Sequence record: PQ759886
Reading direction: 5' to 3' (one strand)
Length of the DNA: 64,000 bases
Source of the DNA: Escherichia phage Pu-Krd-SF6
In this document: positions 30,377-31,467 of the stretch, piece by piece
How positions within the stretch are numbered: position 1 is the first letter of the stretch
How the letters are laid out: the number at the start of each line of letters is the position of its first letter
The notes under the pieces: model-generated
Told to the model about the DNA's origin: nothing
The model's database searches: none
The model's input: only the letters and a program-made list of their open reading frames with translations
Position numbers and translations under genes: made by a program

Positions 30377-31467
30377 AAAATGCGCCTTTAAACGGTAACG
30401 TTTATCGAAAACTCCTTTAATTGCTGGAAAGTCCTTTATAGGAAAACTAGCAGCCAAGGTTTTGCTTGCACCTTTAATTAGTATAATATAAATATGATTA
30501 TACTTTTAAGAGGATGCACAATTGAACTATAGAAAAATTTGGATAGATGCCAACGGACCTATACCTAAAGATTCTGATGGAAGAACATACGAAATCCATC
30601 ATAAAGACGGTAACCGTGAAAATAATGATTTAGATAATTTGATATGTCTTTCTATACAGGAACATTATGATATACATTTAGCTCAAAAAGACTACCAGGC
30701 TTGTCATGCTATAAAGCTCAGAATGAAATATTCTCCTGAAGAAATTTCTGAATTAGCTTCTAAAGCCGCAAAATCTAGAGAAATCCAGGTTTTTAATATC
30801 CCTGAAGTACGAGCTAAAAATATTGCCTCTATTAAATCTAAGATAGAAAATGGTACATTTCATCTTTTAGGTGGTGAAATACAGCGTAAATCTAATTTAA
30901 ATAGAGTTGCATTAGGTATACATAATTTTCAACAAGCTGAGCATATTGCAAAAGTTAAAGAACGCAATATTGCAGCTATAAAAGAAGGTACTCATGTATT
31001 TTGCGGTGGTAAAATGCAGTCAGAAACTCAATCAAAACGGGTAAATGACTGTTCACATCATTTCTTATCAGAAGACCATAAGAAAAGAACATCAGCAAAA
31101 ACATTAGAAATGGTTAAGAACGGGACCCATCCTGCACAAAAAGAAATCACATGTGATTTCTGTGGTCACATTGGTAAAGGTCCTGGATTTTATCTAAAAC
31201 ATAATGACAGATGTAAATTAAATCCAAATAGAATTCAATTGAATTGTCCATATTGTGATAAGAAAGATTTATCACCATCAACATATAAACGATGGCACGG
31301 CGACAATTGCAAAACAAGGTTCAACGACTAGTCTTCGGACGTAGGGTCAAGCGACTCGAAATGGGGAGAATCCCTCCGGGATTGTGATATAGTCTGGTCT
31401 GCATAGTAATATGCAGCAGTTCATAAGAGAACGGGTTGAGAATTAGCGAGCTCAATCGAACATAACG
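30377..31467 (+). mobile_element. group I self-splicing intron of nrdB (about 1091 nt)
   Basis: Interrupts the conserved R2 motif YVSFAC|TFNF...MEGNAK; 3' end ...GAACATAACG resembles the td intron 3' end; boundaries inferred from frame continuity. Confidence 0.7.
30522..31331 (+). CDS. I-TevIII: HNH homing endonuclease (full-length I-TevIII-like)
   Basis: 269-aa ORF inside the nrdB intron; HNH motif EIHHKDGNRENNDLDNLICL; Cys-rich C-terminus; first codon is TTG. Confidence 0.75.
   Translation: MNYRKIWIDANGPIPKDSDGRTYEIHHKDGNRENNDLDNLICLSIQEHYDIHLAQKDYQACHAIKLRMKYSPEEISELASKAAKSREIQVFNIPEVRAKNIASIKSKIENGTFHLLGGEIQRKSNLNRVALGIHNFQQAEHIAKVKERNIAAIKEGTHVFCGGKMQSETQSKRVNDCSHHFLSEDHKKRTSAKTLEMVKNGTHPAQKEITCDFCGHIGKGPGFYLKHNDRCKLNPNRIQLNCPYCDKKDLSPSTYKRWHGDNCKTRFND

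Follow-up and report, generated by a model that had tools for sequence, protein, structure and literature searches.

With very little doubt, Escherichia phage Pu-Krd-SF6 is T4-like (Tequatrovirus), and its nrdB gene holds a mobile group I intron of the RB3 type in which the I-TevIII gene is intact, an element for which splicing, cleavage and homing would be expected from sequence identities of 97–100%. This assessment is based on the window, i.e. the whole 64,000-nucleotide stretch of phage DNA from sequence record PQ759886 that was analysed, in which we compared the nrdB locus with natural alleles of the same intron, with protein and RNA families, and with published work on the intron endonucleases of T4 and its relatives. 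RB3-type nrdB introns with I-TevIII are already known: they have been published, the RB3 enzyme has been characterised, and an identical sequence is present in GenBank. The locus has little weight as a discovery, since the intron has been described before, together with its endonuclease and regulation and with its relation to the truncated T4 form. Its practical value lies in the annotation of the gene and in the behavior of RNA family models.

The interrupted nrdB gene and its splice junction

The nrdB gene is located on the + strand at 29701..31970, where it is split by a 1091-nt insert at 30377..31467, and all features of the gene, the intron and its reading frame described below are on the same strand. 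The reading frame of exon 1 (29701..30376; 225 codons followed by the T that opens a Cys codon), which was delimited using the open reading frame list and the homologous join in RB3, meets a TAA at 30377-30379 right behind ...YVSFA. When T30376 and G31468 are joined, a TGT (Cys) codon is formed, and the frame continues with TFNFHKNMEIMEGNAK through exon 2 (31468..31970, from the open reading frame list and the spliced translation) to the stop at 31970. The joined NrdB, 392 aa long, has 2 residues that differ from those of RB3, is identical to T4 NrdB over the portion encoded by exon 2, and has a junction (YVSFA-C-TFNFHK) that matches T4 NrdB as well as intronless relatives.

In the intronless phages RB32 and RB33 both exon ends are contiguous, at approximately 97% identity, and give single-piece matches to a synthetic query of exon 1 joined to exon 2. 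The same query was held in one place by 526 phage records, a class consisting of records that are intronless or that carry a short intron lacking the ORF. The single-piece matches of intronless alleles fix the nrdB junction independently of any RNA model, and with it the 3' splice site at the terminal intron G (31467). The initial annotation had proposed that nrdB is interrupted after YVSFA and that joining T30376 to G31468 restores the Cys codon, and these exact coordinates were borne out both by translation and by the intronless relatives. It had also likened the 3' end of the insert to that of the td intron, and indeed the last letters of the insert, ...GAACATAACG, resemble ...GAACATAATG, those of the td intron, which is also present in the window.

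The I-TevIII reading frame and its expression

Within the insert, an ORF at 30522..31331 encodes a protein of 269 aa from a TTG start, which is likewise used in RB3 and S16, and is open over all 269 codons. An HNH_3 domain of Pfam spans aa 4-48 (E 2.4e-12), zinc fingers are found at aa 211-231 and 242-263, both of the form CX2CX12-13HX3C and both intact, and phrog_12324 (intron-like DNA endonuclease) aligned over positions 1-269 of 269 (E 8e-191). The proposal of a full-length 269-aa HNH protein with a Cys-rich C-terminus is thus supported by the HNH_3 match and the zinc-finger motifs, and alignment with the T4 intron and I-TevIII returned a full-length, RB3-like ORF in which no internal stop had been overlooked. 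A search of PDB sequences with the protein gave nothing meaningful, the best match (E 0.19) being to unrelated proteins. A Pfam FlgM match at aa 74-117 (26.6 bits, cutoff 25), which sits in the linker of the endonuclease, is probably spurious.

The RB3 enzyme, which was characterised biochemically by Robbins et al. 2007 (PMC1865063), acts as a dimer and renders the RB3 intron mobile, and in purified form is weak and labile (PMC1865063). Alanine at H26, H27, N39 or H48 abolishes its cleavage, and C211/C214 and C242/C245 are required for zinc and DNA binding (PMC1865063). In the Pu-Krd-SF6 protein the catalytic residues H26, H27, N39 and H48 are all kept, as are C211/C214 and C242/C245, and the six differences from RB3 I-TevIII (Y23D, I41M, V90I, G117D, C177G and T265A, with the Pu-Krd-SF6 residue first; 97.8% identity) include none at a mutagenised functional residue. 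The ratio dN/dS of the ORF was 0.21 in comparison with RB3, 0.07 with HY03 and 0.11 with S16, values (0.07–0.21) which indicate purifying selection on the family of I-TevIII ORFs. The ORF is a full-length I-TevIII homing endonuclease, and its near-identity to the RB3 enzyme predicts that it would cleave DNA.

The same six substitutions could be read differently, namely that the intron splices while its I-TevIII has lost some or all of its catalytic activity, having been inactivated recently and now persisting passively. One of the changes, at position 23, falls three residues short of H26/H27, and another, at I41, is close beside N39; degenerate forms of the intron (T4-type, SG1 and ORF-less) are common in nature, and Pu-Krd-SF6 is without mobE, the gene through which the dead T4 intron is mobilised in trans (PMC2790892). 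However, every residue required by mutagenesis is intact, Y23 is common to the S16 allele, which makes D23 of RB3 the outlier, the ORF has neither a frameshift nor a stop, and the low dN/dS against RB3, HY03 and S16 speaks for continuing purifying selection on the family. We therefore consider a dead or impaired allele improbable, and favor an intact enzyme.

Expression of the endonuclease appears to be under the same kind of control as in known phage introns. The Shine-Dalgarno sequence of the ORF (AAGAGGA, 30508-30514) is paired with upstream sequence in a predicted RNA hairpin at 30467..30518, with a minimum free energy of -14.9 kcal/mol and z = -4.77, a stability that none of 200 shuffled sequences equalled, and the hairpin loop contains a late-promoter-like box, TATAAATA (30487..30494), a match to the T4 late-promoter consensus that is predicted to function as such. 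For I-TevI, II and III, read-through transcripts of the early and middle phases have their ribosome-binding site masked, late transcripts begun inside the hairpin have it free, and the middle and late promoters of the three T4 intron endonucleases have been located by primer extension (PMC2988022). By the same mechanism, the hairpin in Pu-Krd-SF6 would hide the ribosome-binding site on read-through transcripts, while late transcripts initiated from the box would lack its 5' arm and would be translatable. A scan for sigma-70 promoters and terminators, which is uninformative for T4 middle and late promoters, found 11 where 11.0 were expected by chance.

Operator sites that resemble homing sites have been proposed for these endonucleases, including a putative I-TevIII operator (PMC2988022). 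The idea of an I-TevIII operator is therefore not new, and what we describe here may be such a site: the sequence AAGGTTTTGCTTGCACCTTTAA at 30456..30477 mimics the intronless homing site (TATCTTTTGCGT joined directly to GTACCTTTAA), with agreement at 17 of the 22 positions across the insertion point, a level reached by 2 of 500 shuffled sequences. The mimic overlaps the 5' strand of P6a and is located just upstream of the late-promoter-like box. Whether it is a real operator, at which the intact enzyme would repress the late transcription of its own gene, a mode of control demonstrated for I-TevI alone, is in our view doubtful, with the odds somewhat against it. If it is real, the binding of the enzyme to this DNA could also link the amount of endonuclease to the function of the intron in a phage that has no mobE.

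The group I core

A complete group I core from P1 to P9.2, including P7.1 and P7.2, could be drawn on the Pu-Krd-SF6 sequence, with 72 proposed pairs, all of which are standard. The insert is preceded by U, its last base is G, and P1 (30373-76 / 30382-85) pairs GCGU with GCGC, such that the wobble U30376-G30382 is located at the 5' splice site and is followed by G-C, C-G and G-C, an arrangement that is invariant among eight variants. P2 (30390-94 / 30399-403) is the hairpin AAACG GUAA CGUUU, P3 (30412-17 / 31363-68) has six standard pairs in agreement with the P3 columns of Rfam, and P4 (30422-27 / 30447-52) and P5 (30432-35 / 30440-43) follow the Rfam alignment. P6 (30453-55 / 31318-20) is extended by P6a (30459-65 / 31309-15), whose loop contains the I-TevIII ORF, and the last ~8 codons of the ORF (..CKTRFND*) overlap P6a', P6', J6/7 and the start of P7. 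On the 3' side of the ORF, P7 (31326-30 / 31390-94) encloses P7.1 (31331-33 / 31338-40; GUC-UUCG-GAC), P7.2 (31344-48 / 31353-57; GGGUC-AAGC-GACUC) and P8 (31369-74 / 31378-83), and is followed by P9 (31399-405 / 31410-16), P9.1 (31419-22 / 31429-32) and P9.2 (31434-40 / 31451-57). The helices P3 to P8 were found with the P3/P7 pseudoknot and with the conserved sequences of J6/7, J8/7 and P7, using standard pairs only, and the terminal G expected of a group I intron is G31467. The 3' half of the catalytic core (31326..31394) aligns to the Rfam Intron_gpI model with high posterior probability, as do the conserved core stretches GGUUCAACGACUA and GAUAUAGUCU, which follow the Rfam consensus. Extra helices P7.1 and P7.2 between P7 and P3' are the hallmark of subgroup IA2, and in the insert both are located in this position.

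Natural variation is compatible with the proposed structure. Across eight natural alleles 575 of 575 cells pair (100%), compared with 34–44% when the partners are slid by 1–3 columns, although the former figure is partly circular, given that the structure was drawn from the Pu-Krd-SF6 sequence, and only nine variable pairs are informative. Four of these show compensatory double changes (two in P2, and one each in P5 and P9), five show single changes that preserve pairing through a wobble, and no variable pair is broken in any of the eight alleles. The two compensatory pairs in P2 (A-U to G-C and G-C to A-U) were found in S16, SG1, CJY920 and HY03; P5 has a compensatory change of U-A to A-U, P4 of F26 has A-U in place of G-U, P9 has a compensatory change of A-U to G-C in T4, SG1, HY03 and pYD6-A, and the pairing of P6/P6a is kept despite variation of U-A with U-G and of C-G with U-G.

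Since the sample consists of eight close relatives, the support from covariation is modest, but it is reinforced by distant introns of unrelated phages, which provide independent support. These are located in the DNA polymerase genes of Pectobacterium phage PPWS1 and Providencia phage PSTRCR_114, and in the ATPase gene of Pseudoalteromonas phage pYD6-A, and match the P7'-P9.2 region over 50–88 nt at 84–96% identity. In P9.2, changes of U-A to C-G and of U-A to G-C were observed in PPWS1 and PSTRCR_114, and swaps of G-C to C-G in P7.2 occur in the related introns of distant phages.

A search of the whole window with Rfam at the gathering threshold gave zero matches. A permissive E-value scan of the window with Intron_gpI (RF00028) scored 36 bits (E 3e-7), against a cutoff of 50 bits, and in this alignment P7, P3', P8, P7' and P9 are well placed, while the 5' half is wrongly placed within the ORF. 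The ORF-less allele of CE1, a natural intron of 304 nt whose core is the same as that of Pu-Krd-SF6 at all but about three of the compared positions, scored 68.6 bits and was the only one of three alleles to pass, T4 (598 nt) and SG1 (420 nt) being below the gathering threshold. The low score of the window is likely due to the insertion of ~840 nt in P6a, and as the ORF in P6a defeats the model, the lack of a match at the gathering level is no evidence against an intron. The check by covariance model that had been suggested initially thus recovered the core, on the ORF-less CE1 allele, and gave the sub-threshold 36 bits on the window itself. In practical terms, covariance-model scans overlook the nrdB intron in its ORF-bearing form.

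The insert is a group I intron of an IA2-like phage subgroup, and the near-identity of its core to the T4 and RB3 introns suggests that it would self-splice, as the T4 nrdB intron does. That there is no intron, and that nrdB is truly split into two separately translated fragments with a free-standing HNH endonuclease gene between them, has hardly any chance of being correct: Pu-Krd-SF7 and many other records do annotate two nrdB CDSs plus an endonuclease, and an ATG at 31491 could begin a C-terminal fragment of 159 aa, but a start there would drop 8 conserved residues, the boundaries follow the U...G rule, joining across them restores both the codon and the junction common to intronless alleles, a complete group I core with covariation surrounds the ORF, the reference annotations of RB3 and T4 join the exons, and a two-CDS annotation is typical output of automatic pipelines. 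For annotation, the value of the spliced reading is that nrdB becomes one joined CDS, where identical public records split it in two.

Under the spliced reading, nrdB pre-mRNA would excise 30377..31467 by the standard group I route, as suggested by identities of 97–99%. Guanosine would attack after U30376, in the U-G wobble of P1, and the 5' exon would then attack after the terminal G31467, resulting in an mRNA for the 392-aa NrdB. I-TevIII produced from the P6a loop would introduce a break that, in a co-infection, is repaired off the intron-bearing genome, such that the intron is copied (homing). No feature of the sequence contradicts this explanation.

Natural alleles and comparison with known systems

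Alignment with the RB3, T4, CE1, S16 and SG1 introns sets the boundaries of the RB3-type group I intron at 30377..31467, and the insertion position in nrdB is identical to that in T4 and RB3. In a megablast search, the 1451 nt at 30200-31650 matched Escherichia phages Pu-Krd-SF1/2/5/7 at 100% identity, and RB3 with its relatives at 98.6%. Full-length introns were found in this phage and RB3 (1091 nt each), HY03 (1096 nt), S16 (1093 nt, 89% identity) and Bp7 (1088 nt), those of T4 (598 nt) and F26 (592 nt) have an internal deletion, that of SG1 (420 nt) a larger one, and those of CJY920 (309 nt) and CE1 (304 nt) are ORF-less. The natural deletions of T4, SG1 and CE1 are all confined to the P6a loop in the alignment.

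The T4 intron aligns as the Pu-Krd-SF6 element minus 491 nt (30580..31070), with two additional indels of 1 nt, and the endpoints of the deletion fall in an imperfect direct repeat of 13 nt that flanks the stretch (GAAGAACATACGA / GAAGACCATAAGA). Since 491 cannot be divided evenly by 3, T4 keeps only its annotated C-terminal remnant of 97 aa, which corresponds to aa 173-269 of the Pu-Krd-SF6 ORF (phrog_27406). The suggestion that the locus resembles the intact form of some T4 relatives therefore agrees with the alignment, in which RB3 has the same length of 1091 nt at 98.6% identity and T4 lacks 491 nt. This relation of intact to truncated nrdB introns has been described previously (PMC1865063, PMC2790892, PMC2988022). 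Among phage records, 727 matched the nrdB region and 137 the intron, 84 of the latter with coverage of at least 80% (the full-length form), and at least 80% of the I-TevIII protein is encoded in 88 records. With 84–88 full-length carriers, the intact form is a common minority allele and no rarity.

The neighbors of nrdB are nrdA (27385..29649), which flanks it upstream, denA and rnlA. No mobE was found between nrdA and nrdB, where the gap spans only 29650-29700, whereas RB3 and T4 have mobE in this position. For its mobility the T4 intron relies entirely on mobE acting in trans (PMC2790892), and the absence of mobE from Pu-Krd-SF6 fits an intact intron that is self-sufficient and needs no such help. 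The locus is thus a further case of an intact I-TevIII intron in a mobE-less phage. The four phages Pu-Krd-SF1, SF2, SF5 and SF7 (PQ249395, PQ249396, PQ759885 and PQ759887), which are 100% identical over the 1451 nt, share the order nrdA-nrdB-denA-rnlA without mobE, with the coordinates of SF7 offset by 2 nt, and their records give nrdB as two CDSs instead of a join.

The closest named system is RB3 (X59078, NC_025419), which has the same gene, insertion site and intron length of 1091 nt, the same 269-aa ORF with a TTG start, HNH motif and two zinc fingers, and likewise the late-promoter-like box and the hairpin region at the ribosome-binding site, and which differs from Pu-Krd-SF6 by approximately 15 intron nucleotides and the 6 I-TevIII residues. 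Its annotation gives nrdB as a join of two pieces that enclose I-TevIII. The RB3 nrdB intron was reportedly first described by Eddy & Gold in 1991. T4 has the same insertion site and an RNA core that is 98.9% identical over the shared parts, with a P5 loop and a 3' tail that are each 1 nt shorter, and with G-C in P9 where Pu-Krd-SF6 has A-U. More distant are the td intron with I-TevI and other IA2-type introns (e.g. in DNA polymerase genes of Autographiviridae), which also have an ORF in a peripheral loop, P7.1/P7.2, control by a late promoter and hairpin, and a similar 3' end (GAACATAAYG), but which are located in other host genes and encode endonucleases of other families: I-TevI is a monomeric GIY-YIG enzyme, whereas I-TevIII is a dimeric HNH enzyme (PMC1865063, PMC2988022).

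Homing-site mimic and linker match within the nrdB intron

When the intron was compared with the intronless nrdB homing site as it reads across the insertion point, positions 30456-30477 were equal to it at 17 of 22 positions, a level of identity reached by 2 of 500 shuffles. This stretch, which adjoins a late-promoter-like box and overlaps the 5' strand of P6a, is a putative operator for I-TevIII, a role proposed from sequence resemblance. Within the I-TevIII linker (aa 74-117, window 30741-30872), the Pfam FlgM (anti-sigma-28) model scored 26.6 bits against a cutoff of 25, a match that is probably spurious.

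In public records, nrdB is entered as two independent CDSs with no join, both in Pu-Krd-SF7 (L002, PQ759887.1) and in phage CE1 (L004:1528-2007, ON229909.1), and in the latter the label "major capsid protein" is given to nrdB exon 2.

Relatives of the intron core and origin of the T4 allele

The P7'-P9.2 segment of the nrdB intron (window 31378-31465) showed 84-96% identity to related-intron loci lying within split DNA polymerase genes of Pectobacterium phage PPWS1 (L012:1501-1586) and Providencia phage PSTRCR_114 (L013:1501-1552), and within a split ATPase gene of Pseudoalteromonas phage pYD6-A (L014:1501-1575); a crAss-like phage record showed 83.8% identity to the same segment. Closely related intron cores are therefore found across unrelated phage families and genes.

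At each end of the 491-nt deletion in the T4 allele lies one copy of an imperfect 13-nt direct repeat (window 30580-30592 and 31071-31083; GAAGAACATACGA / GAAGACCATAAGA), which suggests that this allele was made by slippage or short-homology recombination between the repeats.

Neighboring mobile elements and a divergent NrdB patch

A second split gene, td (thymidylate synthase; window ~24978-26854), lies upstream of nrdB, and its intron, with a 5' junction of ...CTTGGGT|TAATTGAGG and a 3' end of ...GAACATAATG|CTACC, contains an I-TevI-like homing endonuclease ORF (~25658-26395). Like the nrdB intron, it gave no match in the Rfam scan of the whole window at the gathering threshold. In the SF7 annotation, a further homing endonuclease gene (~21056-21688) is flanked by gene 59, which encodes the helicase loader, and by the next ORF downstream, annotated as a hypothetical protein; by position, the endonuclease gene looks segG-like. 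In RB3 and T4, mobE, a gene for a free-standing HNH endonuclease, occupies the nrdA-nrdB gap, whereas here mobE / nrdB.1 is absent between the two genes, which are separated by a 51-nt spacer (window 29650-29700).

Approximately 30 NrdB residues (aa ~171-200, window 30210-30310) were strongly diverged from T4: the window and RB3 both read EFVELAKESPDAVFRLNRAIKQEAEAKRAL, whereas T4 reads DMVEYYKDQGLILADKDVEQRAKRDL, which is 4 aa shorter. The divergent patch stops ~70 nt before the intron, and beyond it the exon is nearly identical to T4. It may represent a mosaic or recombinant segment close to the endonuclease target sites.
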